A stretch of 26,959 nt of DNA from Methanoregula sp. (GTDB taxonomy: Archaea > Halobacteriota > Methanomicrobia > Methanomicrobiales > Methanospirillaceae), in the NCBI GenBank assembly GCA_026394635.1, contig JAPKXV010000308.1, forward strand, positions 1 through 26,959, in the 5' to 3' direction. This document shows positions 1,624 through 24,647 of this stretch, piece by piece; position 1 is the first letter of the stretch, and each line of letters starts with the position of its first letter. The notes beneath the pieces were generated by a model, which saw nothing but the letters and a program-made list of their open reading frames with translations, did not search any database and was not told the origin of the DNA. The position numbers and the translations under genes were made by a program.

Positions 1624-1697
1624 GGGCCCGTAGCATAGCTTGGTGGTGCGCCCGGCTGATAACCGGGAGGTCATGCGTTCAAATCGCATCGGGCCCA
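1624..1697 (+). tRNA. tRNA-Ile (GAT)
   Basis: Cloverleaf: acceptor GGGCCCG/CGGGCCC, anticodon stem CCCGG-CTGATAA-CCGGG, T arm ATGCG-TTCAAAT-CGCAT, discriminator A; CCA not encoded. Confidence 0.97.
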
Positions 1698-6459: not shown

Positions 6460-6825
6460 TCAGGGGTTTGATGCTATATCGGACCCTGACTGGACAACCA
6501 CTTCCTTTTTTCCCTGGTAGGTCTGGACGAGCCCCACCACAGAAATATTTCCCCCATTTTGCAGCGTCATATCTGATGCAATCTGACCCGGGATAAAAAC
6601 AGAAACATTATTGATCTGGAAGATGAAATGCCCCCCGTTCTTCGTAATCACGAGATGATCAATCATTCCAGACAGGTATACAAGATCCCCATCGTGAGAC
6701 ATGTCCGAAAAAGGAGCAGCAAACGAGCGCTTTCCCGCATTCTCAAGGATCAGGTGAGCTGCAACTACCAGGATCACCACCCCAACCAGTATCAGGAGAG
6801 CCAGCCGTTCCTGACGTTCGAACAT
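6460..6825 (-). CDS. Membrane-anchored OB-fold-like protein (121 aa)
   Basis: ATG 6825 (MFERQERLALLILVG...) avoids overlap with the divergent HTH gene. N-terminal TM helix; C-terminal ISVVGLVQTYQGKKEVVV is an OB-fold-like pattern. Confidence 0.7.
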   Translation of the reverse strand: MFERQERLALLILVGVVILVVAAHLILENAGKRSFAAPFSDMSHDGDLVYLSGMIDHLVITKNGGHFIFQINNVSVFIPGQIASDMTLQNGGNISVVGLVQTYQGKKEVVVQSGSDIASNP

Positions 6826-10728: not shown

Positions 10729-10740
10729 GGTAATCGCAAA

Positions 10741-11049
10741 TGGGGACGCGTTATCGGTCGACTGTACGTTTCTGCTTTCACCAGAACATCCATCCTCTGC
10801 CCCGTTACCCCATGGGCGCCGGATGTCTACGGTAAGTCTGCTCCCTTCCGGGCCTGAACCGGTCCCCGCAGCAACAGGTCGCCATTCCCTCCGGAATCTT
10901 GAACCCTGTCCATCGACCTCATGGGACGAGGTTTCATTGTCAGAACGCACCGGTTCCAGCAGGTCGTTGCAGCCTCGGTCAAACTTCGCCCCCGGCATAC
11001 CGACGGTTTCAGGTTACAGGTGACGCCGAACCACCCGGGCTAGTCCCCA
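10741..11049 (-). ncRNA. ffs: Signal recognition particle (7S/SRP) RNA
   Basis: Ends pair as helix 1 (TGGGGAC/GTCCCCA). Alu-domain start GGACTAGCCCGGGTGGTTCGGCGTCACCTGTAACC. Helix-8 signature TCAGGCCCGGAAGGGAGCAG. Length about 309 nt. Confidence 0.95.
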
Positions 11050-11145
11050 TATACCTTTGTCAACCACGGGAAAAAAGGCTTTGTTCCTGATGAGCTCCGG
11101 CGCTTAAAGGTGAGGGTGATGCTGGATCACGGGAGTAAAACAATT

Positions 11146-12244: not shown

Positions 12245-12319
12245 TGGGCCCGATGCGATTCGAACGCATGACCGCCCGGTTATGAGCCGGGCGCTCTAAC
12301 CGGACTGAGCTACGGGCCC
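12245..12319 (-). tRNA. tRNA-Ile2 (CAT anticodon, agmatidine type) rather than tRNA-Met
   Basis: GGGCCCGTAGCTCAGTCCGGTTAGAGCGCCCGGCTCATAACCGGGCGGTCATGCGTTCGAATCGCATCGGGCCCA. Acceptor, anticodon and T stems match the tRNA-Ile(GAT) at 1624; no A1-U72 initiator pair. Confidence 0.9.
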
Positions 12320-12529: not shown

Positions 12530-12736
12530 GGCTCTGGAGAAATCCCTGACCAACCTCCGGTATCAGCGTTCCATGCTGGATCGATTTTCCCCGGATATCA
12601 CAAGAGGGGATGCAAAGGTGGCGGGGGCAATGTACATCGAAGATGTCCCAATGGACATCTTCTTTTGGTTTGCTCCTTTCCTCCCGGGAACGGCAAACAT
12701 CCCCAAGAACGTTAAAAAGATGATTTCTCCAGGTAC
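12530..12736 (+). mobile_element. MITE-like repeat, copy A (~207 bp)
   Basis: Left end GGCTCTGGAGAAATC, right end GATTTCTCCAGgtac (11-bp perfect inverted match). Alignable end to end with 17804-18010. No coding capacity. Confidence 0.75.
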
Positions 12737-13017
12737 GTTTTTTTCATCTCGTTTAACAGACGGATGAGATCATCGAGATCGTCGTCGAGGTGCGTGAACA
12801 TCTCGGCAGCCTGCGATGTCGCCACGGCACCGTCCGGTGATGCGCGGATGTACCCCATCTGTTCCAGTACATGCAGCGAATAGCGGATACGGTGGGAGGG
12901 GAGGGAAAGCAGCTCGGAAAGTTTCATGATCCCGATCGGCTGGTGGTCGACAACGGCGCGTGCCACCTCGATGTGCCGGCTTAAGAGTTCGATCTCATCT
13001 TTCATCTTTTTTAACAT
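12712..13017 (-). CDS. Archaeal winged-helix protein (COG3388-like)
   Basis: QPIGIMKLSELLSLPSHRIRYSLHVLEQMGYIRASPDGA wHTH pattern. Confidence 0.8.
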   Translation of the reverse strand: MLKKMKDEIELLSRHIEVARAVVDHQPIGIMKLSELLSLPSHRIRYSLHVLEQMGYIRASPDGAVATSQAAEMFTHLDDDLDDLIRLLNEMKKTYLEKSSF

Positions 13018-13092
13018 GGCAAATCTGTGGGGGGTTCTGCCGCATCACGAATTTTGTTCTTTATTACTTTTTTCTTTTCATCCTAGGGAATA

Positions 13093-13683
13093 TTATCTGA
13101 GGTCTTGTCCACATTCCGGGCAGAATTTTTCATTATGAATTTTTTGATGGCATCGTGGACAAACCTTTTTTTCCCAGGGAATTTCTGTTCCGAGCGTAGA
13201 TCTTTGGATTACTCCCTCATTTTGGATATCAGTTTGCGTTTTATCTCCGACTTGAACATTTCCTGTGACAGGGTAAATTATTTGAGGGCGTATTTCAATT
13301 TTTTCTGCGAATGCGGCTTCATTCTGTGGATTTCGCTTGAGTTCTTTTAATGCATCCCCTTTATTATTCAATGACAGCACATTTTTCGGATCCGGTTCGA
13401 TTGCCTTGTCACAAGAGGCAAGTGCATCTGCATGCAGCCCGGGTTTATTTGGCGCACCTGCATGTTCTTCGAGCCACGCCCGGGTATCCCTGTACCTTTT
13501 TTTAAAGGTGATCGAGAGGTAAACAACCAGCACGATCATCACCAGTACCAGCGGGATACGGTACGGCTCGGGGGTAATGAACAATGCCATCACGGTCAGC
13601 GCAGCCAGCAGGATGACAGCATTGAGCTGGAGCGCCAGTTTATAGAATTTCAGTCGGAACAGCTCTTTATTCTCCGGATCCAT
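13093..13683 (-). CDS. Mosaic hypothetical protein: two TM helices, TPR-like fragment, C-terminal double-CxxC Zn ribbon
   Basis: Hydrophobic pair at about residues 15-60; ALASCDKAIEPDPKNVLSLNNKGDALKEL is TPR-like; ends CPRC...CPECG. Confidence 0.55.
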   Translation of the reverse strand: MDPENKELFRLKFYKLALQLNAVILLAALTVMALFITPEPYRIPLVLVMIVLVVYLSITFKKRYRDTRAWLEEHAGAPNKPGLHADALASCDKAIEPDPKNVLSLNNKGDALKELKRNPQNEAAFAEKIEIRPQIIYPVTGNVQVGDKTQTDIQNEGVIQRSTLGTEIPWEKKVCPRCHQKIHNEKFCPECGQDLR

Positions 13684-13743
13684 TACTCATACGTCACCTC
13701 CATGATAAAAGTACTTGACGTTTCAGGGTTCATATCAGGTACA

Positions 13744-14871
13744 ATGGATGCACTGGACCATGCGATTGTTCTGAGCGGTGCCGATGCCTACGTGGTGTAC
13801 GCATCGTCTGATGATGCAGACATGAGATATCTTTCAGGTTTTACAACGAGTGATCCCTTCATCTTTTTTAAAAAACCCGGGCGGCGCGGGGTGATTATCA
13901 TCTCCCAGATGGAACACGCCCGCGCAGTCCGGGAATCCACGGCAGCCGTAATGACACGGGCCCAGGCGGGTCTTGTTGAGATCCTGAAAACGGAGAAGGA
14001 TCCATGGCGGGCGACGGCAAAAATGATCGCGGGGCAGGTGCAGGGCAGGATCCTCGTCCCACCACGGTTCCCTCTTGCGCTTGCCCGTGCGCTGCAGGAT
14101 TCATCAGAGCTCGTGGTTGACCACAGCGCCCTTGCATCGATGCGTGCAGTAAAGACACGCCCGCAGATTGCAGCGATAAAAAATGTTCAGAGGGTGACGG
14201 AGTCTGCTCTCGATCTCGGGATATCCCTCATCAGGAAATCCACGGAGAGAAAAGGCATCCTCCTGTCGGGGGGAAAACCGCTTACCTCAGAGCGCGTAAA
14301 AGCTGCAATGCACACCTGCCTTATCGAACACGGGTGCATTGCAAAAGATTCCATCGTGTCCTGCGGTAATGATGCGGCGATCCCCCACTGCCTGGGGAGC
14401 GGTGCGCTGAAAGCGCACCAGCCCATCGTGCTTGATATTTTTCCCCGGCACGAACAGTCGGGCTATTTTTCCGATATGACCCGTACCGTATCAAAGGGCG
14501 AACCCGATGCAAAAGTAAGGGATATGCATGCGGTGATATGTGAAGCCCAGGCGCTTGCAATCGGGCAGGTGCGGGAGGGGGTATCCGGGTCCGCCATCCA
14601 CCAGACGGTTGTAGATTTTTTCCGGGACCACGGGTATGGCAACACGACAACAGGGTTTGTACATAACCTCGGGCATGGGATCGGTCTTGAGGTGCATGAA
14701 CCCCCTTCGCTCGGTCCCTCCGGCACCAGCCTTGTCGCTGGCAACGTCATTACCATCGAACCCGGGCTGTACTACCCGGGCGTTGGCGGTGTCCGCCTGG
14801 AAGATGTCGGGATTGTGACGAAAAAGGGCTTTTTACGGTTCACAAACTACCCCATGGATCTCGTGGTATGA
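13744..14871 (+). CDS. pepQ: Xaa-Pro aminopeptidase/dipeptidase (M24B), about 375 aa
   Basis: Creatinase-like N-terminus (DMRYLSGF); metal ligands in LDIFP, FSDMTRT, HNLGHGIGLEVHE, TIEPGLY and RLED. Probable start ATG 13744. Confidence 0.9.
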   Translation: MDALDHAIVLSGADAYVVYASSDDADMRYLSGFTTSDPFIFFKKPGRRGVIIISQMEHARAVRESTAAVMTRAQAGLVEILKTEKDPWRATAKMIAGQVQGRILVPPRFPLALARALQDSSELVVDHSALASMRAVKTRPQIAAIKNVQRVTESALDLGISLIRKSTERKGILLSGGKPLTSERVKAAMHTCLIEHGCIAKDSIVSCGNDAAIPHCLGSGALKAHQPIVLDIFPRHEQSGYFSDMTRTVSKGEPDAKVRDMHAVICEAQALAIGQVREGVSGSAIHQTVVDFFRDHGYGNTTTGFVHNLGHGIGLEVHEPPSLGPSGTSLVAGNVITIEPGLYYPGVGGVRLEDVGIVTKKGFLRFTNYPMDLVV

Positions 14872-15746
14872 TGGACGACAGCACATTTGATAATTACCGC
14901 CAGGCAGGAGAGATCGCAGCCAAGATCCTCCGTGAAGGTGCAGCAGGCATCCGTGCCGGTGCTTCCTACTTAGAGGTCGTGGAATCGATCGAGTCGCGGG
15001 TTACCGGGGCAGGTGCAGGGCTCGCATTCCCGCTGAACCTTTCGTTGAACGAGGATGCCGCCCACGATACCGCATCGACCGGCGATGACCGGATCTTTTC
15101 CCATGGGGACGTGGTAAAACTTGACCTCGGCGTCCATATCGACGGTTATATTGCAGATACTGCGACCACAGTCGATCTCGGCTCCCATGCAAACCTTGTT
15201 GAGGCATCGTTCCAGGCGCTGGAGCATGCGATTGCAGCCGTGCGCCCCGGTGTGACTGCCGGGGAGATCGGGGCTGCGATCCAGTACGAAATCGAGAGCC
15301 GGGGGTACCGCCCCGTTTCCAACCTGACCGGGCACGGGCTCGACCGCTACGTCATTCACCGCCCGCCAACCATCCCCAATATCGGGATTGCCGGAGGGGT
15401 CAAGATTGAGGAGGGCATGGTCTTTGCGATCGAACCCTTCGCGAGCACCGGCAGCGGGCGCGTGAGTGAAAAATCCAGAAAAGAGATCTACCAGCAGATC
15501 TCCACAAAACCGGTGCGCACTCCCTCGGGCCGGTCAGTTATGGAGCGGATCCGGGACCGGCACGGGCTCCCGTTTGCACGGCGCTGGGTGCCGGACAAAA
15601 AAGCTGATATCGCCTTGTCCGGCCTCGTGAGAACCGGGCACCTTCATGTATATCCTGTACTTGCCGACATCCCGGGATCGCTTGTCTCCCAGCACGAGCA
15701 TACCCTGGTTGTAACGGAAAACGGGTGCGTTGTCACCACACGGTGA
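14868..15746 (+). CDS. map: Methionine aminopeptidase type II
   Basis: AFP, AAH, KLDLGVHIDGYIADTA, NLTGH, AIEPFA and SQHEHT motifs; ATGA overlap with pepQ. Confidence 0.96.
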   Translation: MMDDSTFDNYRQAGEIAAKILREGAAGIRAGASYLEVVESIESRVTGAGAGLAFPLNLSLNEDAAHDTASTGDDRIFSHGDVVKLDLGVHIDGYIADTATTVDLGSHANLVEASFQALEHAIAAVRPGVTAGEIGAAIQYEIESRGYRPVSNLTGHGLDRYVIHRPPTIPNIGIAGGVKIEEGMVFAIEPFASTGSGRVSEKSRKEIYQQISTKPVRTPSGRSVMERIRDRHGLPFARRWVPDKKADIALSGLVRTGHLHVYPVLADIPGSLVSQHEHTLVVTENGCVVTTR

Positions 15747-15790
15747 GATAAGCTTATGCCATTTTGGAGATTATACTTATAGTTACAACC

Positions 15791-17065
15791 ATGTCCGGAG
15801 ATGCTGACACGTTACATGTGATGGAAATCGTCCTGACCGCCGATATCTTCAACCGGCACCCGGAACTCGATATCAATGACCTAACTCCTCTCTGCCGGGA
15901 AATTTTTACATCGGTGAGCGCACCGGGTATCAAGCGCCCGGTCTCGGTCAGCGAGGGAATGATCAAACGCTCACTGGGAATCGCCGATGCCCATGAAAAG
16001 CTGGGCCAGAACCCCTTTGTCAGCTTTGAGGAGTTTGGGCAGCGCCTGAAACTTACGGCGCTGGAACCCGGAGCTCTCTGGTTCCTCAAACAGGGTGGCA
16101 GGCCGCTGATCGAGAAGAACCCTGCGCTTGCGTTCTATTTCGAAAAGATCGATTCGGTCGGTGTCTCGTACGCAGCAGTCCGGGCAGCAAATCCCCCCTT
16201 TGAGGATACCAAGGGATTTCTCGATACCAAGATCTCAAAGCTTGTTGCAGAAGATGAGAAACTGCGCGCTGCACTTGACCTTGTGATCATCAACTCGCCT
16301 GACGAAGTGGAGCAGAAAATGGAAGACCTGGTCTGCACGCCCGACCAGACCCGCCTCATCGCAAAGATCCGGCACGCGATCGAGCACCAGGAATTCCTGC
16401 ACCGGCACCGGATCTTTGAGATAGGCAAACTCCTCTTTGTCGGGCCCCCGGGGACCGGCAAGACATCGCTTGCCCTTGCGATGTCCCGCACCCTGCACAT
16501 GCCCATCCTTGAAGTCCGGCTCTCGATGATCACCTCCCAGTATCTCGGGGAGACCTCGAAAAATATTGACCGCATCTTTGAGCTGGCAAAGAAACTCTCG
16601 CCATCGATCCTGTTTGTCGACGAATTCGATTTTGTGGCAAAGAGCCGGGTCGCCGATGACCATGGCGCCATGAAACGCGCAGTGAACTCGCTGTTAAAAA
16701 ACATTGACAGGATCAGCCTCGTAAAAAACGGCGTGCTGCTGATCGCTGCCACCAATCACCCCCAGCTGCTTGACCTGGCGGCATGGCGGCGGTTTGATGA
16801 GGTGGTGGAGTTCTCCCTCCCCAACGAAGAGATGCGCAGGGAGATCTTAAAGAAAGTGACTGCATCCATCAACTGTTCCTGTGATTATTCGGAGCTTGCG
16901 GCACAGACCGATGGGTTCTCCGGTGCCGACCTTCGCCTGATGATAAAAGAGGCGATGCTCTCGGCGCTGATGGACCGCCGTGAGGCAATCGACCGCAGCG
17001 ATATCGAGAGGGGCATCATCATGGTGAAGAACCGGGATGCGATCCAGCGCATGAACTGGCTGTAG
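15791..17065 (+). CDS. AAA+ ATPase with an uncharacterised N-terminal domain
   Basis: Walker A GPPGTGKT, Walker B LFVDEFD, SRH ATNHPQLLDLAAWRRFD, lid GFSGADL. Probable start ATG 15791. Confidence 0.92.
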   Translation: MSGDADTLHVMEIVLTADIFNRHPELDINDLTPLCREIFTSVSAPGIKRPVSVSEGMIKRSLGIADAHEKLGQNPFVSFEEFGQRLKLTALEPGALWFLKQGGRPLIEKNPALAFYFEKIDSVGVSYAAVRAANPPFEDTKGFLDTKISKLVAEDEKLRAALDLVIINSPDEVEQKMEDLVCTPDQTRLIAKIRHAIEHQEFLHRHRIFEIGKLLFVGPPGTGKTSLALAMSRTLHMPILEVRLSMITSQYLGETSKNIDRIFELAKKLSPSILFVDEFDFVAKSRVADDHGAMKRAVNSLLKNIDRISLVKNGVLLIAATNHPQLLDLAAWRRFDEVVEFSLPNEEMRREILKKVTASINCSCDYSELAAQTDGFSGADLRLMIKEAMLSALMDRREAIDRSDIERGIIMVKNRDAIQRMNWL

Positions 17066-17066
17066 C

Positions 17067-17786
17067 ATGAAACTCACCCTGCTGGGCACCGGTGATGCGA
17101 TCGGCACCCCGAAGATCGGGTGCTCCTGCCCCCAGTGTGCTCGCGCCGGCAAAACCGGTGTCATGCGCCTGCGGACTTCCCTGCTCCTCGAAAATGAGGG
17201 CGCACACATCCTTATCGACTCTTCCCCCGACCTCCGGCAGCAGCTCCTTCTCCACGGCTCTCCGAAAATCGATGCGGTTATCTGGACCCACGGGCACTAC
17301 GATCATTTCATCGGGTTTGGTGAGTTCTACCGTGTGCAGGACGTGCCGCCGGTCTATGCAGCGCCGCCGGTGCTCTCCTATTGTGCCGAGCTATTCAGGT
17401 TCCTCCCGTTTGAAAAACACCCGGTAAATCCCTATGAAACGTTTCACCTTTCCGGGTGCGCCATCACCCCGTTTCTGGTAAAACACCCCCCTGCATACAC
17501 CTGCGGCATGCTCATCGAATGCAACGGGGCACGGATCGGGTTCACCTCGGATACAAACCCGGATATCCCGGAAAAAAGCCTCGACCTGTTATACGACCTT
17601 GACCTCCTGCTCGTCGATGCCCTCGTCCCGTCGGATATCAGGGTCCACAAGCATATGAATTACCTTGATGCCTGTACCCTCGCGCAGAAACTCAAACCAA
17701 AGGAGTTCCGGTGCATCCATGCAAGCCACATGATCTCCTGGGACCTTCCCCACGTTGGCAGGGACCGTGAAACATTCGAATTCTAA
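17067..17786 (+). CDS. Metallo-beta-lactamase-fold hydrolase, PhnP/YycJ-like
   Basis: LGTGDAIGTP, CSCPQC, RLRTS, THGHYDH, FTSD and HASH motifs. Confidence 0.92.
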   Translation: MKLTLLGTGDAIGTPKIGCSCPQCARAGKTGVMRLRTSLLLENEGAHILIDSSPDLRQQLLLHGSPKIDAVIWTHGHYDHFIGFGEFYRVQDVPPVYAAPPVLSYCAELFRFLPFEKHPVNPYETFHLSGCAITPFLVKHPPAYTCGMLIECNGARIGFTSDTNPDIPEKSLDLLYDLDLLLVDALVPSDIRVHKHMNYLDACTLAQKLKPKEFRCIHASHMISWDLPHVGRDRETFEF

Positions 17787-17803
17787 AAAACCATTCCTTT
17801 TCA

Positions 17804-18010
17804 GGCTCTGGTGAAATCTCTATTCTCACAATATTTCCAGAGATCCACGATGAGCCGGTTTTCGATGGATATCGCAAGGGGGGATGCCACAGTGGCGGGG
17901 GCAATGTAAATCGAAGATGTCCTGATGGACATCTTCTCCAGTTTGCCTTCCCTGCGGGAACGGCAAACATCCCCAAGAACGTTATGAAGAATGATGATTT
18001 CTACAGAGCC
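17804..18010 (+). mobile_element. MITE-like repeat, copy B (207 bp)
   Basis: TIRs GGCTCTGGTGAAATC (17804-17818) and GATTTCTACAGAGCC (17996-18010), 13/15 complementary. Shares an exact 30-nt run with copy A. Confidence 0.8.
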
Positions 18011-18105
18011 CCTTCTCTCCTCTTTTCTTTTAAAAGACTCGCCCCCGGCGCCCATCCCCCGCTCACCCATACATTAATAGTTTTCAGCTCCCCAAACATA
18101 GGTGC

Positions 18106-18372
18106 ATGATTGTAAAAGTACTCGAGCTGGAGAGCAACAAGGCCCGTCTCCTCGTTCAGGGCGAAGGACATACCTTCATGAACGCCCTCACCGATGAGAT
18201 CCTCCGCGACCCTTCTGTGGACGTCGCAAAATACCTCATCGAATTCCAGTTCTCGGAACCGGAACTCCTCATCACCACCAAGGGTAAAAAAGACCCCCTC
18301 GTTGTCATAAAGGACGCATGCAAGCGGCTCTCCAAAAACTGCGATAAACTGGTTAAGGGTCTTGGAAAATAA
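18106..18372 (+). CDS. rpoL: RNA polymerase subunit L (Rpo11)
   Basis: GEGHTFMNAL...DPSVDVAKY...EPELLITT pattern; 88 aa. Confidence 0.93.
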   Translation: MIVKVLELESNKARLLVQGEGHTFMNALTDEILRDPSVDVAKYLIEFQFSEPELLITTKGKKDPLVVIKDACKRLSKNCDKLVKGLGK

Positions 18373-18495
18373 ACGGCATTTCCCTTCATTTCCCCTGGTC
18401 CGTTATCTCTTTTTTTAAAAAAATCATCAAAATTATGGATGACTGGCCTGATAACGACCATCAGGATATTTAAAAAAAAGTATTCACTTCAGGGC

Positions 18496-19110
18496 CTAAA
18501 CCGCCCGTTCGGTAAAAACAATCGAACCGGAGACGCGGGTGATCTTGACTTTCACCTGCTGGCCGGGTTTTGCATTTGCCACGTAGATGATGTACCGCCC
18601 CATCTTCACGACCCCGTCCCCGCGACGGGAGAGCGACTGGATCTCCAGGTCGAGGATTGCACCCTCTTCAAGGTTCTTTTCCACCGGTTCGGTGCGTGCC
18701 TTGCGCTTCCTCACCGGCCGGTGACCTCCGCAGGCATCGCAGCGCAGGAGCTGCACCCGGTCATCCTTGACAAGTTTGGTATCCGGCCTGCCGCATTCGG
18801 AACAGATGACGTAATCATCAACATAATTCTTAATGATCGCTTTTATTAAGGAGATCTCGAACTTCCCGTTGAAAATGGCGCGGTTGCCGTCTATCTTTCC
18901 CGAAGTCCCGAGCTCACCTAACAGGAATTTCATGAGGTGGTCATGGTCGCGCCGGACCTTGTCTGCGATCTCCACAAAATTTTCAAGTACGGTTGTCTTG
19001 CCTTCGATGTACGCTTTGGCTTCGGGTACGACAAACCGTTCTGACGAGGTGCTCACCTCGGAAATATTGGTGTATGCCTTTTTTAAGAGGTTTTCATAGG
19101 GATCAGTCAT
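18496..19110 (-). CDS. eif2b: Translation initiation factor aIF-2 beta with C-terminal TRAM domain
   Basis: IEGKTT..NF, ELGTSG, Zn finger CSECGRPDT...CDACG, then TRAM ([27 protein letters not shown]). Confidence 0.96.
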
Positions 19111-19217
19111 CGTACATATAAGAGGGGGGATTCAAGCAAAAGGCTTTCCCAGTGTCGTGGAGGCCGCTCCGGCCGGTTACAGGAGCTATTTTGTAATTTT
19201 ACGATCCATCACTGATC

Positions 19218-22160
19218 ATGGATTCTTTTATCCACCGGATAGAAGTTCACTATAAATCTGATCCACGATTGCAGTCCAGGTCCGACCGGATCCGCTCCCT
19301 GGGGTTTCCCCTCAGCGAACTGCACCTCATCGATATCTATACCATTGCGACGGGCTCGCGGGATTTTTCAAAGGACGAGCTCGCACAAATCGGCGCACAA
19401 CTTATCAACCCCGTCGTCCAGGAATATACCATCGATACGGCGACAACGGCAGATTTCGATTACGCGATCGAAGTCGGGTTTCTCCCGGGGGTCACCGACA
19501 ATGTCGGCACGACGGCAAAACAGACCATCGAGGACTTTTTCTCGTTCCGGTTTTTGGACGGGGAATCGGTCACCAGCTCGCAGCTCTTCTTTGTACGCGG
19601 GGCCCTGTCGCCGGATTCGGTGCAGGAACTCGCGTCGACACTGGCAAATCCTCTCGTAAACCGGGTCCATATCAGGACACGCAGGGAGTACGGCAGCCGG
19701 GGCATGGACCCCGTCGTGCCATCGGTCCACCTCAACGAGATCCCGACAGCAGAGACCGTTGATCTCGATTTGGACGACGCGAACCTTGCGAGGCTGGGAA
19801 AAGAGGGGATACCGGATGCGGCAACCGGGCAGCGGAGAGGTCCGCTTGCCCTTGACCTTGCCCAGCTCCACACAATCCGCAACTATTTTAAAAAGAAAGG
19901 CAGGAAACCGACGGACGTGGAACTCGAGTCCCTCGCCCAGACCTGGAGCGAGCACTGCAAGCACACGATCTTTGCGTCGGCAATGGACGACGATATCCCC
20001 CAAGGCCTCTACAAATCCTGCATCCAGGCAGCCACCAATAAGATCCGCAAAGAGAAAGGGAAGAAGGATATCTGCGTCTCGGTCTTTTCGGATAACTCCG
20101 GCGCGATCATCTTCGATGAGACGTACCTGGTGACGCACAAGGTCGAGACCCATAACTCGCCGTCGGCCCTCGACCCCTTCGGCGGTGCCCTGACCGGCAT
20201 TGTCGGGGTGAACCGGGACACGATCGGGTTTGGCCTCGGGGCAAAGCCATGCCTTAACTATTACGGGTACTGCGTCGGGGATCCCGATACCGATCCGAAA
20301 TTATTCCGGGGGAAAAACAGATTGAACCCCATCCTCTCCCCCCGGCAGATCCTCGACGGCGTGGTCCGCGGGGTGGGCGTCGGCGGCAACTGCTCGGGCA
20401 TCGCAACCCCGCAGGGCTGGTGCTGTTTCCATGACCGGTACACCGGCAAACCCCTCGTGTTCGCCGGGACAGTCGGCGTGATGCCCCGGGAACACAAAGG
20501 ACGGAAACTCTCCGAGAAGCGGGCGAAAGCCGGCGACCTCATCGTCATGGTGGGAGGCCGGGTGGGAAAGGACGGGATCCACGGCGCCACGTTCTCCTCG
20601 GAGCCACTTGACCCGGCAAGCCCGGTCACTGCCGTCCAGATCGGGGACCCGATCACCCAGAAGAAACTCTCCGATGTGATCGTCAAGGAAGCCCGCGACC
20701 CCGGGCTGTACCGCAGCATCACGGACAACGGGGCCGGCGGCCTCTCCTGCTCCGTTGCAGAGATGGCAAAGGAGTGCAACGGCTGCCATGTCGCCCTTGA
20801 CAAAGTCCCGTTGAAATATCCCGGCATGGCGCCGTGGGAGATCTGGATTTCCGAATCCCAGGAGCGCATGACGCTTGCGATCCCCAAAGAGAACCTGAAC
20901 GCGTTCCTGGACCTGGTGCAGAGGCGGGAGGTCGAGGCAACGGTGATCGGCACCTTCACGGATACCGGGAAGTGTGTTGTTGAGTGCCATGGCGATGTCG
21001 TGATGGACGTGGACCTGGATTTCCTTCATGACGGCCTGCCGAAAAAACATCTGAAGACCACCTTCACACAAAAAACCTATCCGGAACCGGATCCTGCCTG
21101 CCCGGCCCGGCTTGATGAGACCCTGCTCTCCCTGCTGCAGCGGAAGAACATCTGCTCAAAGGAGTTCATCTCCATCCAGTACGACCATACCGTGCAGGGC
21201 GGCCATGTGCTCGGGCCGGTGCAGGGTAAAGGGCGGGTGCAGGCGGCAGCTTCCCTGACCAAAGTCGTGCCGGGTTCGAAAAAGGGGGTCGGGTTATCGC
21301 AGGGCCTGTTCCCTTCGTATTCGGAGATTGACCCCTACCGCATGGCGGCTGCAGGGATCGACACGGCCATCCGGGGACTGATCGCGATCGGCATACCGCT
21401 GGACCAGATTGCGCTTCTCGATAATTTCTGCTGGTGCTCGTCCGATAACCCTGAACGGCTCGGGCAGCTGAAACGGGCCGCACAGGGATGCTATGATGTT
21501 GCCACCGCGTTTGGCACCCCGTTCATCTCCGGGAAAGACAGTATGTTCAACGATTTCTCCGGGTTCGATGCCAAGAGCAACCCGGTGAAGATCTCCGTGC
21601 CCCCGACGCTCCTCATCTCCTCGATCGGCATTCACCCCGATGTGATCAGTGCCGTATCCATGGATGCCAAGTTCGAAGGCGACCTCATCTACGTCATCGG
21701 GGAGACATCGGAAGAACTGGGCGGGTCTGAATATTTCGCGAGCCTGGGTAGCACCGGAAATACGGTCCCTGCACTGGATGCCGGAAAAGCGAAAGCACGG
21801 TACCGGCGGCTGACCGATGCGATCGGGAAGGAGCTCGTAGCTTCTGCACACCCGGTCAGCCACGGGGGCCTCGCCGTCGCTCTTGCGAAGGTCGCGATCG
21901 CAGGCCGGATCGGCATGGACATCACCATTCCTTCCGGCATGCGGCCGGATTACTATCTTTTCTCCGAATCGCTCTCCCGGTTCGTTGTCACGGTTTCCCC
22001 GGCGAACCAGAAAGCCTTTGAGAAGATCGCCAGCACGGATGCCGTGCTGCTGGGACAGTTGAGCGGCAGGTCTTTGCGGGTTGCCGCACAAAAAAATCTT
22101 ATCGACATCCCGGTGGACGATCTGGAGAACGCCTATAAATTACCATTCCGGGGGTACTGA
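19218..22160 (+). CDS. purL: Phosphoribosylformylglycinamidine synthase, synthetase subunit, long form (980 aa)
   Basis: QTWSEHCKH, KVETHNSPS, DGIHGATFSS, DNGAGGLS, SESQERM, YDHTVQG, LDNFCW and SGKDS motifs. Confidence 0.96.
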   Translation: MDSFIHRIEVHYKSDPRLQSRSDRIRSLGFPLSELHLIDIYTIATGSRDFSKDELAQIGAQLINPVVQEYTIDTATTADFDYAIEVGFLPGVTDNVGTTAKQTIEDFFSFRFLDGESVTSSQLFFVRGALSPDSVQELASTLANPLVNRVHIRTRREYGSRGMDPVVPSVHLNEIPTAETVDLDLDDANLARLGKEGIPDAATGQRRGPLALDLAQLHTIRNYFKKKGRKPTDVELESLAQTWSEHCKHTIFASAMDDDIPQGLYKSCIQAATNKIRKEKGKKDICVSVFSDNSGAIIFDETYLVTHKVETHNSPSALDPFGGALTGIVGVNRDTIGFGLGAKPCLNYYGYCVGDPDTDPKLFRGKNRLNPILSPRQILDGVVRGVGVGGNCSGIATPQGWCCFHDRYTGKPLVFAGTVGVMPREHKGRKLSEKRAKAGDLIVMVGGRVGKDGIHGATFSSEPLDPASPVTAVQIGDPITQKKLSDVIVKEARDPGLYRSITDNGAGGLSCSVAEMAKECNGCHVALDKVPLKYPGMAPWEIWISESQERMTLAIPKENLNAFLDLVQRREVEATVIGTFTDTGKCVVECHGDVVMDVDLDFLHDGLPKKHLKTTFTQKTYPEPDPACPARLDETLLSLLQRKNICSKEFISIQYDHTVQGGHVLGPVQGKGRVQAAASLTKVVPGSKKGVGLSQGLFPSYSEIDPYRMAAAGIDTAIRGLIAIGIPLDQIALLDNFCWCSSDNPERLGQLKRAAQGCYDVATAFGTPFISGKDSMFNDFSGFDAKSNPVKISVPPTLLISSIGIHPDVISAVSMDAKFEGDLIYVIGETSEELGGSEYFASLGSTGNTVPALDAGKAKARYRRLTDAIGKELVASAHPVSHGGLAVALAKVAIAGRIGMDITIPSGMRPDYYLFSESLSRFVVTVSPANQKAFEKIASTDAVLLGQLSGRSLRVAAQKNLIDIPVDDLENAYKLPFRGY

Positions 22161-22162
22161 CC

Positions 22163-23038
22163 ATGGCAGGGGGAAACGGGAGGGAAAAGAAGAAACCGCA
22201 GCGACAGGCAACAGAGAGGGCTCCGGACGCTCCGGTACAGGTAGGTGCAAAGGCCCTCATCATGAGCGGCTACGGGATCAACTCCGAGATGGAGACGCAG
22301 GAAGCGCTCGCCCGGGCCGGCATGGGGTCGGACATCGTCCACAGCAACGATTTGATCGCGGGAAGAAAAACGCTCTCCGGTTACCGGCTGCTGGTCTTCC
22401 CCGGCGGTTTTTCGTATGGCGACGATACCGGCGCCGGTAACGCGTACGCAAACCGGGTGCGGAACAACCTGTGGGGCGACCTTGAGAAATTTTTAGACGG
22501 CGATAACCTCGTGCTGGGGATCTGCAACGGGTTCCAGATCCTCGCAAACCTCGGTCTTGTGCCGGCGTTTGACAAAAAATATACCCGCGAGATCGCCCTG
22601 ATGCCCAACCGGAAAGGGGTGCTGGAATGCCGGTTTGTTACCATCAAACCCGCAGCCGACAACCTCTGGACAAGGGGCATCGAACGCATCTCCTGCCCCG
22701 TCTCCCATGGCGAGGGGAATTTTTACTGTTCACCTGATACCCTGCAGCGGTTGAAGGACCAGAAGATGATCACGTTCCGGTACTGCCGGGACGATATGAG
22801 CCCTGCAGACGGGGAGTACCCGCACAACCCCAACGGTTCGGTAGAAGACATCGCCGGCATCACGTCCGAAGACGGGAAAGTGTTGGGCCTGATGCCGCAC
22901 CCGGAGCGGGCCATGGAGTTTGTCAACCTGTATGACTGGCCGTACCAGAAAGAGATGATGAAACGCAAAGGCATAGAACCGCCGCAGGAATCCTTAAACA
23001 TGCAGTTTTTCAAAAATATTACACGATATTTCCAGTAG
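22163..23038 (+). CDS. purQ: FGAM synthase glutaminase subunit
   Basis: GYGINSE, PGGFSYGD, catalytic GICNGFQ, SHGEG, NPNGS and MPHPER motifs. Confidence 0.96.
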   Translation: MAGGNGREKKKPQRQATERAPDAPVQVGAKALIMSGYGINSEMETQEALARAGMGSDIVHSNDLIAGRKTLSGYRLLVFPGGFSYGDDTGAGNAYANRVRNNLWGDLEKFLDGDNLVLGICNGFQILANLGLVPAFDKKYTREIALMPNRKGVLECRFVTIKPAADNLWTRGIERISCPVSHGEGNFYCSPDTLQRLKDQKMITFRYCRDDMSPADGEYPHNPNGSVEDIAGITSEDGKVLGLMPHPERAMEFVNLYDWPYQKEMMKRKGIEPPQESLNMQFFKNITRYFQ

Positions 23039-23181
23039 GGTAAACTACCATTTTAACACCCTAATCATCACAGCCTTTTCGACGTATTCAATAAACGAAA
23101 CGCTGTTCCTGAAAAAACGTAAAGGAAAAGTGAATGCAGATATCGTGTAATTTTTTACCGTTGAATGTCAACCTCCTGTCC

Positions 23182-23255
23182 GTCTATCGCAACCGGGGGA
23201 TGCCCCAGCGGCGGGGGCGGAGGCCCAGCCGAAGCCCCCAAGAGCGACTATAGAC
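23182..23255 (+). repeat. Structured intergenic repeat sharing the MITE central core (copy D)
   Basis: TATCGCAACCGGGGGATGCCCCAGCGGCGGGGGC resembles copy B TATCGCAAGGGGGGATGCCACAGTGGCGGGGGC; closed by GTCTAT...ATAGAC. Confidence 0.55.
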
Positions 23256-23428
23256 TGCTGATTCAATCATAGATCCAGAAAAATTTTGGTGCAAAGTGAG
23301 CACGTTACCCTTCCCGTAATGGGAAAGGTCCGGGTACCACCCGTTCCCCTCTTCACTCGTCCGGTTCGCCCCGGACAGGCGCGGGATTCTTCCCCGGCCG
23401 TACGCCAGAAAAATACGCCGGACGGTTC

Positions 23429-23911
23429 TTATTCTGTCATCGAGGCATTGACCCTGACGATCAGCTCATTGAGCCGTTTCCCATCCGACAGATCGTTTTT
23501 GGTGAAGATGTAGACCCCGATGACCTTTACGCCCTTTGCCTCGAGCGCCTTCTTCATGATATCGAGGGTCTCGCCCGGTTTGCCCCCGCACGTCGCAAAG
23601 ATGATCGCTTTTTTCCCCTCACACCCTTGTAACGCGGCGATTGCGGCATTGGTGGCAGGCGTCGGTTTCCCGGCCCATACCGGGGTGCCAAGGACAACCA
23701 TGTCATATCCGGCAACATCGATCTTTTTCTGCTCGATGGGGTCCTGCCTGCCCTTCATCGCGCGGTACCCGCCCAGCACATACACCGTAAGTGCATTGTA
23801 TTTCTTCTGGGGCATCACTTCGATCAGGTCACCCCCGCAGGCAACTTTCACCTTCTTCGCTATGCGGCGGGTGGTGCCGGAGTGCGAGTGATAGAGGATA
23901 CATCGGGACAT
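23429..23911 (-). CDS. Flavodoxin-like protein
   Basis: FMN phosphate loop SHSGTT; LGTPVWAGKP; FATCGG. Confidence 0.9.
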   Translation of the reverse strand: MSRCILYHSHSGTTRRIAKKVKVACGGDLIEVMPQKKYNALTVYVLGGYRAMKGRQDPIEQKKIDVAGYDMVVLGTPVWAGKPTPATNAAIAALQGCEGKKAIIFATCGGKPGETLDIMKKALEAKGVKVIGVYIFTKNDLSDGKRLNELIVRVNASMTE

Positions 23912-24017
23912 ACCTGAGATATCAGCATTGCCAGAGAAAAAAGGTTGGCGGAAGGAAGTCTGGCAGGAAACGGGGCAGCTTCACCTGTACATCGAAGGTA
24001 CCCTGCCTTCCCTGCGC

Positions 24018-24503
24018 TCAGGCGCGGGTAGCGGCACTGACCATGGTGAGGATCTCTTTTGTTTTTTTCTCGTTCTCAATCTCTTTTTTGTGGATCGTCA
24101 TGGTGCCGCGGACCTGCATCGTGCGCCCTTCACACCACGTTGTGAACGTTTCTTCTGATGACCCCGGCATACCGCCATGGCAGAAAAATCCGATGACCGG
24201 TTTTCCCTCGCAGCCTTTCAGGGCCAGTATGGCTGCATGGATGACCGGCGTCGGTTTGAATGCCCATACGGGGGACCCCAGGACAATGAGGTCATACCCC
24301 GAGACATCGATGGATGCCGGTTCAATGGGGGTCGTCTCTTCACCCTGCGCTTTTTTGCACCGGCTCATAAAGCGCGTGAGGGGGACATAATATGCACGGT
24401 CATACACCTCGATAAGGCGCACATCGGTGCAGGCCGATGCGAGGTGCTGCGCCACGTGCCGTGTCGTGCCGGTTTCAGAGTGGTAGATGATGCAAATCTT
24501 CAT
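24018..24503 (-). CDS. Flavodoxin-like protein, tandem paralogue
   Basis: SETGTT; LGSPVWAFKP; FFCHGG. Confidence 0.9.
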   Translation of the reverse strand: MKICIIYHSETGTTRHVAQHLASACTDVRLIEVYDRAYYVPLTRFMSRCKKAQGEETTPIEPASIDVSGYDLIVLGSPVWAFKPTPVIHAAILALKGCEGKPVIGFFCHGGMPGSSEETFTTWCEGRTMQVRGTMTIHKKEIENEKKTKEILTMVSAATRA

Positions 24504-24535
24504 CCAGATACTATGGGAATGTTCAATAAAAAAAG

Positions 24536-24627
24536 GGCTCTGGTGAGATCCCTGATCTTACATCATTACCAGAGATCCATGATGAACCGGTTTTCGACGG
24601 ATATCGCAAGGGGGGCTGCCCCACGGG
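24536..24627 (+). repeat. 5'-half fragment of the MITE-like repeat (copy C)
   Basis: Begins GGCTCTGGTGAGATC; 44/47 identical to copy B over CCAGAGATCC...CGCAAGGGGGG; 3' half and right TIR are absent. Confidence 0.8.
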
Positions 24628-24647
24628 CAAAAAAGGAAGAGAGAAGA

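Follow-up and report, generated by a model that had tools for sequence, protein, structure and literature searches.

The best comparison for the repeats described here is offered by the MITEHsal elements of Halobacterium salinarum, archaeal miniature inverted-repeat transposable elements (MITEs) that have been assigned to insertion sequence (IS) families by their termini (PMC7002104). Like our family, they are short and non-coding, are bordered by target duplications, share the termini of a resident class of IS and are attributed to mobilisation in trans (PMC7002104). Our family differs from them in its host, a member of the Methanoregulaceae, in its sequence and its partner, in its number (about 60 copies), in having a partner that is unassembled in the same genome and in the modular construction of its interior.

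On the side of the autonomous elements, the ISH1 subgroup of the IS5 family comprises insertion sequences of 900-1150 bp with 8-bp repeats and one ORF (PMC6352166). The candidate partner of our repeats is similar to members of this subgroup such as ISH1 of Halobacterium and ISTth7 of Thermus in its size of 1009 bp, its single DDE ORF and its 8-bp duplications, but the nearest named relatives of its transposase in tblastn searches, the haloarchaeal IS5-like ISHvo2, ISH28 and ISH19 families, are just ~30% identical to it. An IS5-family element on plasmid pMETHO01 of Methanomethylovorans hollandica (NC_019972, 261670-262670) encodes a transposase 57% identical to the partner's and, like the partner, is about 1 kb long (~1001 bp), with the ends GGCTCTGTAGAA and GGCTTTGTAGAA; it differs in that its host belongs to the order Methanosarcinales and its flanking repeat agrees at only 6 of 8 positions. 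The open literature that we searched contained no report of a MITE in Methanoregula, nor of this particular element. As far as could be checked against that literature, this is an element of an ordinary kind that is characterised here for the first time.

Three copies and an empty site

The window, by which we mean the whole stretch of 26,959 nucleotides that was analysed, contains three copies, A, B and C, of one non-coding MITE (Table 1). The earlier note had described A and B as repeats of equal length with inverted ends and an exact 30-mer in common, and so they are: both measure 207 bp, they are identical at 165 of 207 positions and the 30-mer is found at 12685 in A and at 17955 in B. The inverted ends of GGCTCTG type that it had ascribed to both are complete in B (GGCTCTGGTGAAATC and GGCTCTGTAGAAATC, at 17804-17818 and 17996-18010), whereas A has an intact left end and a degenerate right one, which reads inward as GTACCTGGAGAAATC. 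C had been taken for the 5' part of the repeat, and over the first ~92 nt of B it matches at 78 of 92 positions; since it replaces ~36 nt of ancestral spacer, C is a deletion derivative.

Table 1. Positions of the MITE copies and their parts in the window
Feature	Position	Strand	Description
MITE copy A	12530..12736	+	207-bp long variant of the alternative-left-arm subfamily; relatives lack A
Left target-site duplication of B, 8 bp	17796..17803	.	CCTTTTCA
MITE copy B	17804..18010	+	207 bp, long variant, complete, with the 15-bp inverted repeat at either terminus
Core module of B, 5' part	17870..17902	+	TATCGCAA-GGGGGG-ATGCC-ACAGT-GGCGGGGGC, GC-rich
Double-hairpin insert of B	17903..17968	+	about 66-68 nt, in long copies; short copies have GAAG(C)
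Core module of B, 3' part	17969..17984	+	ATCCCC-AAGAACGTTA
Right target-site duplication of B, 8 bp	18011..18018	.	CCTTCTCT
Copy of a second MITE-like family	about 23039..23318	+	ends GGGTAAA.T.CCA...; only the core module in common with A and B
MITE remnant C	24536..24628	+	5' 93 nt only

All three copies lie on the + strand, in line with the common orientation that had been proposed, but their supposed uniform position next to gene 3' ends did not hold up: B begins 17 nt past the stop codon of a + strand gene and lies upstream of the gene for RNA polymerase subunit L, while A and C adjoin the 3' ends of - strand genes. In one case the insertion has altered a coding sequence. The last seven codons and the stop codon of the ORF at 12712-13017 (-) come from A, so that the protein has the C-terminus ...KKTYLEKSSF*, against ...KKTNS* for its orthologue from a sister genome. 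A possible fourth relative, at 23185-23218, turned out to belong to the second family listed in Table 1, whose copy is absent from a sister genome and for which a search for a partner found none. No transposase is encoded in the window, again as the earlier note had it.

One trace of transposition is an empty site. The closest sister genome (G010) has the syntenic position precisely without B; the flanks are 90-93% identical and their alignments abut at the site with an overlap of 8 bp, a single CCTTCTCA. The same empty form is present on one co-occurring metagenome contig. Together with the terminal inverted repeats and the exact 8-bp duplications, this clean empty site agrees with what had been suggested from the window, a non-autonomous element mobilised in trans.

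The family in its genome

The high copy number predicted from the window is real. BLAST gave 56 matches in the 2.2-Mb assembly of the same genome, and clustering placed the family at about 71 places (in round figures 60-70), with ~17 long copies (~207 bp), ~27 short copies (~143 bp) and fragments besides; many of them stand at contig ends. The 15-bp terminal inverted repeat is GGCTCTGKWGAAATC, and more than 40 copies have both ends. The long and short variants are 68 nt apart, and because this is not a multiple of 3, the copies have no common reading frame.

The target duplication is exactly 8 bp long: identity between the two flanks stays within 55-76% from position -1 through -8 and falls to 26% at -9. 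Among the 62 leniently called candidates for which flanking 8-mers were scored, 13 had a perfect repeat (8/8) and 15 had one at 7/8, so that 28 were identical or had one mismatch; in a control that paired flanks across copies, a mean of 2.6 of the 8 positions matched. The repeat family is thus far above chance expectation. The target itself is AT-rich, of the form S-WWWWWW-N, with G or C at position 1 in 74% of the sites and 74-96% A+T at positions 2-7; the genome as a whole has 52% G+C. Of 74 flanks scored with crude gene calls, 48 have the 3' end of the gene turned towards the copy, a bias that follows from the AT-richness of the target.

The probable partner and its rivals

Two sister genomes supply the candidate for the autonomous partner, a 1009-bp insertion sequence present in 7 copies in the closed genome G006, of the same genus, and also found in G004. 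Its ends in G006 are GGCTCTGTAGAAAACCTGATCT and GGCTCTGTAGAATTCC (short form GGCTCTGTAGAAAT), with GGCTCTG termini, and perfect 8-bp repeats border 6 of the 9 copies examined in the two genomes. The single ORF encodes a DDE transposase of about 290 aa, which scores 83.9 bits (1.6e-23) against Pfam DDE_Tnp_1 and 215.7 bits against the NCBIfam model NF033579 IS5_2 (cut-off 140). By its size, ORF count, 8-bp duplication and HMM match, it fits the ISH1 subgroup of the IS5 family. The first 13 nt of its ends are those of the commonest MITE end, and 26 of 32 aligned positions agree between the left ends of MITE and IS, which bears out an IS5-family origin of the termini. The interior of the MITE is unrelated to the IS except for ~25 nt on the left, and the MITE is no simple deletion derivative of it. 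G006 also carries the MITE family, as elements of 209-318 bp with perfect 8-bp duplications, together with elements of 93-94 bp made solely of both IS ends.

The expected transposase with the same terminal repeats thus exists in the sister genomes, but not in the assembly from which the window comes, that of a freshwater Methanoregula-like methanogen: neither tblastn and blastn with the G006 element nor searches with NF033579 and PF01609 found the partner or an IS5_2-type transposase among its 465 contigs, which represent a genome 84% complete. Metagenome contigs that match the G006 element are diverged relatives, mostly less than 90% alike, and unassignable to the window's genome. One partner-like metagenome contig has a MITE-like end, ...TCTGTAGAAATCC. 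Each MITE copy of the window's own genome has its nearest relative at 82-95% identity, with no identical pair, which argues against recent activity there, although near-identical repeats are dropped by assemblers; in conjunction with the lack of an assembled partner, this makes them look like old orphans.

We regard it as very probable that A, B and C are MITEs moved by a ~1-kb IS5-family element of the ISH1-subgroup type, on the strength of their termini, duplications, copy number and empty site and of a partner in sister genomes with the same termini and duplication length. The element encodes nothing; its 15-bp inverted termini would be bound by a DDE transposase supplied in trans by such an IS, which would excise the MITE and insert it at a staggered 8-bp cut in an AT-rich target, and repair of the cut would give rise to the 8-bp direct repeats. 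Such targets are frequent in the T-rich tracts just 3' of archaeal genes, which accounts for the crowding of copies in intergenic DNA near gene 3' ends. We infer that a transposase of the G006 type moves the MITE in this way, and that the family has by now become an orphan in the window's own genome, its partner being lost or unassembled.

Three other origins were weighed against the ISH1-subgroup partner. Derivation from, and movement by, an ISL3-family element deserves consideration because elements of that family have GGCTCT... ends and 8-bp duplications, because one contig of the window's own genome terminates in a C-terminal fragment of an ISL3 transposase (28 residues) beside the end GGCTCTCCGACATTTCATG, and because a complete ISL3 element, bounded by GGCTCTTCGCT ends and an 8-bp duplication, occurs in another genome of the order. 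The ISL3 ends, however, do not match those of the MITE past the first 6 nt, and the closed genome G006 carries the MITE family with zero ISL3 domain matches and with 7 IS5-family copies whose first 13 nt are exactly the MITE ends, so that we consider this origin extremely improbable. A weak ISL3-like match in another genome (G005) belongs to a G+C-rich element with unrelated ends. The earlier note had guessed at the IS903 group, to which the partner's membership of the IS5 family, the ends starting GGCT.TG and the ~1-kb size would point, features that we take to resemble IS903. Members of that group make 9-bp duplications and are common on enterobacterial plasmids. Here both MITE and IS have duplications of exactly 8 bp, and a tblastn search of 72,556 plasmids with the partner transposase matched haloarchaea, Methanomethylovorans, Roseomonas and Xanthomonas but, among the 209 records at E<=1e-5, no enterobacterial plasmid; the IS903 assignment is therefore very improbable.

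It might also be supposed that selection by the host, for a structured RNA or a regulatory (REP-like) role, is what primarily maintains the repeats, and that they are not a selfish transposon. Their interior does form conserved hairpins in which a few changes are compensatory, a GC-rich core is common to several MITE families and genera, and there is the bias towards facing gene 3' ends. That bias is explained by the AT-rich target, and the terminal inverted repeats, exact duplications and empty site are those of transposition. The repeats have no match in Rfam at gathering or permissive thresholds, no Y1/RAYT transposase (PF01797) was found in any of five genomes (G000, G006, G119, G058 and G121), and the uniform conservation of the short subfamily (about 0.93) does not point to selection acting on single copies. 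We therefore hold a primarily host-selected family to be highly unlikely. On contig C1 a candidate pair of ends spanning 2.1 kb proved coincidental: inside it an IS1595-like element, bounded by GGTGATT ends of its own, abuts the remnant of another MITE.

A shared core and what the family means

Between its termini the MITE is built of modules. Long copies differ from short ones by the double-hairpin insert, and the joint 17902>17971, with GAAGC between, was seen in four metagenome runs. The GC-rich core of ~45 nt that surrounds the insert is common to two other MITE families with other termini, which makes at least three such families in this genus, and recurs in repeats of other Methanomicrobiales genera, where a single genome may have as many as about 24 occurrences. 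Its motifs follow in the order TATCGCA, G-run, TGCC, GGCGGGGGC, loop, GCCCCC and RAGARCGT; one covarying base pair lies next to the hairpin, and nested or tandem hairpin inserts occur in the loop only. Within the short subfamily the core shows no conservation beyond that of the other regions, all being conserved equally. Different non-autonomous elements could have captured it repeatedly, either as a binding place for some factor of the host or of transposition or as an RNA motif; that it is a functional module and not filler seems to us unlikely.

For the host, the family partly explains the fragmentation of Methanoregula-like metagenome-assembled genomes, in which many contigs end in the MITE repeat, and its insertions are ready presence/absence markers between close species; copy A, which has rewritten the final codons of a gene, is an instance of its effect on genes. 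The shared core with its expandable hairpin loop is a tidy system in which to study how MITE interiors are assembled. More widely, an IS5-family element of ~1 kb that terminates in GGCTCTGTAGAA, of which public records say only "IS5 family transposase", is now documented across the Methanomicrobia.

The repeat family in the window and its genome

The repeats A, B and C belong to a MITE family whose partner is an IS5-family (ISH1-type) insertion sequence (IS); elements of this kind are well known. An earlier note, made without database searches, had picked out these three stretches, and they were confirmed in the sequence (see table), as were the equal length of A and B (165/207 identity) and the exact 30-mer common to both. 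The inverted ends attributed to both copies proved correct for B and for the left side of A, and failed at the right side of A. As had been claimed, C corresponds to the 5' part of B; it is a deletion derivative, because its 93 nt replace ~36 nt of ancestral spacer.

Copies of the MITE and of two other families that contain its GC-rich core (C numbers are contigs of the window's own genome)
Feature	Location	Description
MITE copy A	window 12530-12736	207 bp; left terminus intact, right degenerate; rarer left-arm subfamily
MITE copy B	window 17804-18010	207 bp; 15-bp inverted termini complete at both ends
MITE copy C	window 24536-24628	93 nt; 78/92 match to first ~92 nt of B
~154-bp family	C39:5627-5780, C77:3054-3208, C230:5947-6101, C210:9268-9421, C255:652-886	own genome
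~275-bp family, MITE-like	window 23039-23318	ends GGGTAAA.T.CCA...; only core in common with the A/B/C family

The window is archaeal, with an archaeal SRP RNA at 10740-11050, and the sequencing runs that contain it are freshwater lake and sediment metagenomes. Two window tRNA genes, 1624-1697 (+) and 12245-12319 (-), lie 10.5 kb apart as an inverted repeat of 61 nt (89%) and are likely duplicate or isoacceptor genes.

The high genome-wide copy number anticipated from the window was borne out: the own assembly (2.2 Mb, 465 contigs, 84% complete) holds 56 matches to B, and ~71 places by a more sensitive search. The copies have the termini GGCTCTGKWGAAATC, two left-arm subfamilies and two length classes, ~17 long (~207 bp) and ~27 short (~143 bp), the latter with GAAG in place of a ~68-nt double hairpin. 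MITE fragments are numerous at contig ends, so that the repeat breaks the assembly. The copies at C1:8924-9131 and C217:21-229, with the same flanks and 97% identity, are one locus assembled twice, by assembly redundancy or from two co-binned strains. Apart from this pair, copies are 82-95% identical to their nearest relative (mean identity among all copies, 83%), and within one subfamily all regions are equally conserved; the copies therefore look like neutrally decaying orphans, with the caveat that near-identical repeats can be lost by assemblers. The window was correctly said to lack a transposase, and no partner IS is assembled in the own genome. Diverged IS relatives, not assignable to the window's organism, are present in the samples that contain the window (one contig ends ...TCTGTAGAAATCC).

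At C1:6127-7071 lies a ~918-bp element with GGTGATT... inverted ends and a zinc-ribbon and DDE ORF of 284 aa, which we take to be IS1595-like from a reading of its sequence alone. It is probably a nested insertion, since it directly adjoins 27 nt left over from a MITE end of the GGCTCTG type.

The probable autonomous partner

A search of the closed sister genome G006 with the terminus pattern returned seven pairs, each exactly 1009 bp apart: seven copies of one IS, and hence the transposase gene bounded by the same termini that the earlier note had proposed to look for. The ends are GGCTCTGTAGAAAACCTGATCT and GGCTCTGTAGAATTCC, the duplications are perfect 8-mers (e.g., GATTAACC, GGTATTCT, CATTTTTC), and the single ORF encodes an IS5-family DDE transposase (Pfam DDE_Tnp_1, 1.6e-23; NCBIfam IS5_2, 215.7 bits, cut-off 140). 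Each IS end begins with 13 nt identical to the commonest MITE terminus, which upholds the suggested IS5-family origin, and the left ends of MITE and IS agree at 26/32 aligned positions. The same genome carries members of the MITE family 209-318 bp long, with perfect duplications of 8 bp, together with 93-94-bp elements that are the two IS ends alone. Another genome, G004, has ~16 matches to the transposase model, some full and some fragmentary; numerous contigs there begin in an IS terminus. A Methanomethylovorans plasmid encodes a transposase 57% identical to the partner's, in a ~1001-bp element also ending GGCTCTGTAGAA.

Within IS5, the IS903 group to which the ends had been likened is very unlikely: its repeats are 9 bp, against 8 bp here, and a transposase search of plasmids gave no enterobacterial plasmid among 209 hits. 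The ISH1 subgroup is tabulated with a size of 900-1150 bp, a single ORF and direct repeats of 8 bp (PMC6352166), values with which the partner agrees; this is a fit and not a placement. The GGCTCT ends and the duplications of 8 bp had at first pointed to ISL3, and a full ISL3 with an 8-bp duplication does occur within the same order. However, ISL3 ends depart from those of the MITE after six bases, and the closed G006 has the MITE and no ISL3 domain. In the own genome, a contig ends inside an ISL3-family transposase gene, of which the C-terminal end is present (C289:6565-6705), with the IS terminus GGCTCTCCGACATTTCATG at 6565.

Empty sites and insertion preference

Mobility is evident from the empty orthologous sites, whose existence had been put forward as a check. 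In the closest sister genome, G010, the region syntenic to B is 90-93% identical and B is missing exactly; an 8-bp overlap joins the alignments on either side, and the target is present once, in the sequence ...CCATT CCTTCTCA CCTCTTTTCT..., whereas in the window the MITE stands between CCTTTTCA and CCTTCTCT. The site is likewise empty in one contig of a metagenome run that contains the window, and A and C are similarly missing in relatives. A overlaps the 3' end of ORF 12712-13017 (-), to which it gives the last seven codons and the stop (...KKTYLEKSSF* vs ...KKTNS* in a sister genome); sister-genome orthologues stop 2-3 residues past the common ...EMKKT. This small ORF is HTH-like, with a weak CggR_N match.

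The target duplication is exactly 8 bp: left and right flanks are 55-76% identical at each of eight adjoining positions and 26% at the ninth, and among 62 leniently called candidates 13 are perfect (8/8) and 15 match at 7/8. As reconstructed, the target starts with G/C and continues with six positions rich in A/T; the genome has 52% G+C. By crude gene calls, 3' ends make up 48 of the 74 gene ends facing a copy, often with the stop codon at a distance of 7-50 nt, which is consistent with insertion into the T-rich tracts that follow archaeal genes. Orientation follows no rule, as the three window copies differ in arrangement relative to neighboring genes.

The GC-rich core

The MITE interior does not derive from the IS. 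At its center is the core (TATCGCA, G-run, TGCC, GGCGGGGGC, loop, GCCCCC, RAGARCGT), which recurs in a ~154-bp family with related termini (GGCTCTGTTGAAAAC and GGCTTTGTTGAAATGC) and 8-bp duplications, one copy of which (C255) also has a 68-nt hairpin insert, and in a ~275-bp family whose termini are quite unlike the MITE's. The latter has ~6-7 copies in the own genome and others in G010, G005 and G002; its window copy is missing at the syntenic site of G010, and a search for its partner IS found none. In three other genera, spread over two families of Methanomicrobiales, the hairpin part of the core reaches ~24 instances per genome, against zero matches to a reversed control pattern, and an adjacent base pair covaries (T..A or C..G) in 35/35 aligned instances. 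Its loop accepts inserts of 4 nt, the double hairpin of 68 nt, or hairpin units in tandem, the last giving elements of 256, 315, 318 and up to 462 bp in G006. There, L133 (G006:C1:1299609-1300070) and its neighbors L130-L132 carry tandem ~50-nt units in the core loop. Rfam gave no match to the repeats, and a Y1/RAYT transposase is absent from the five genomes searched. The simplest reading is that the core is shared by common descent and recombination between MITE families; it may possibly have a functional role in mobilization.

No description of the MITE family or its partner was found in the searchable literature; archaeal examples of MITEs are catalogued for haloarchaea (PMC7002104).
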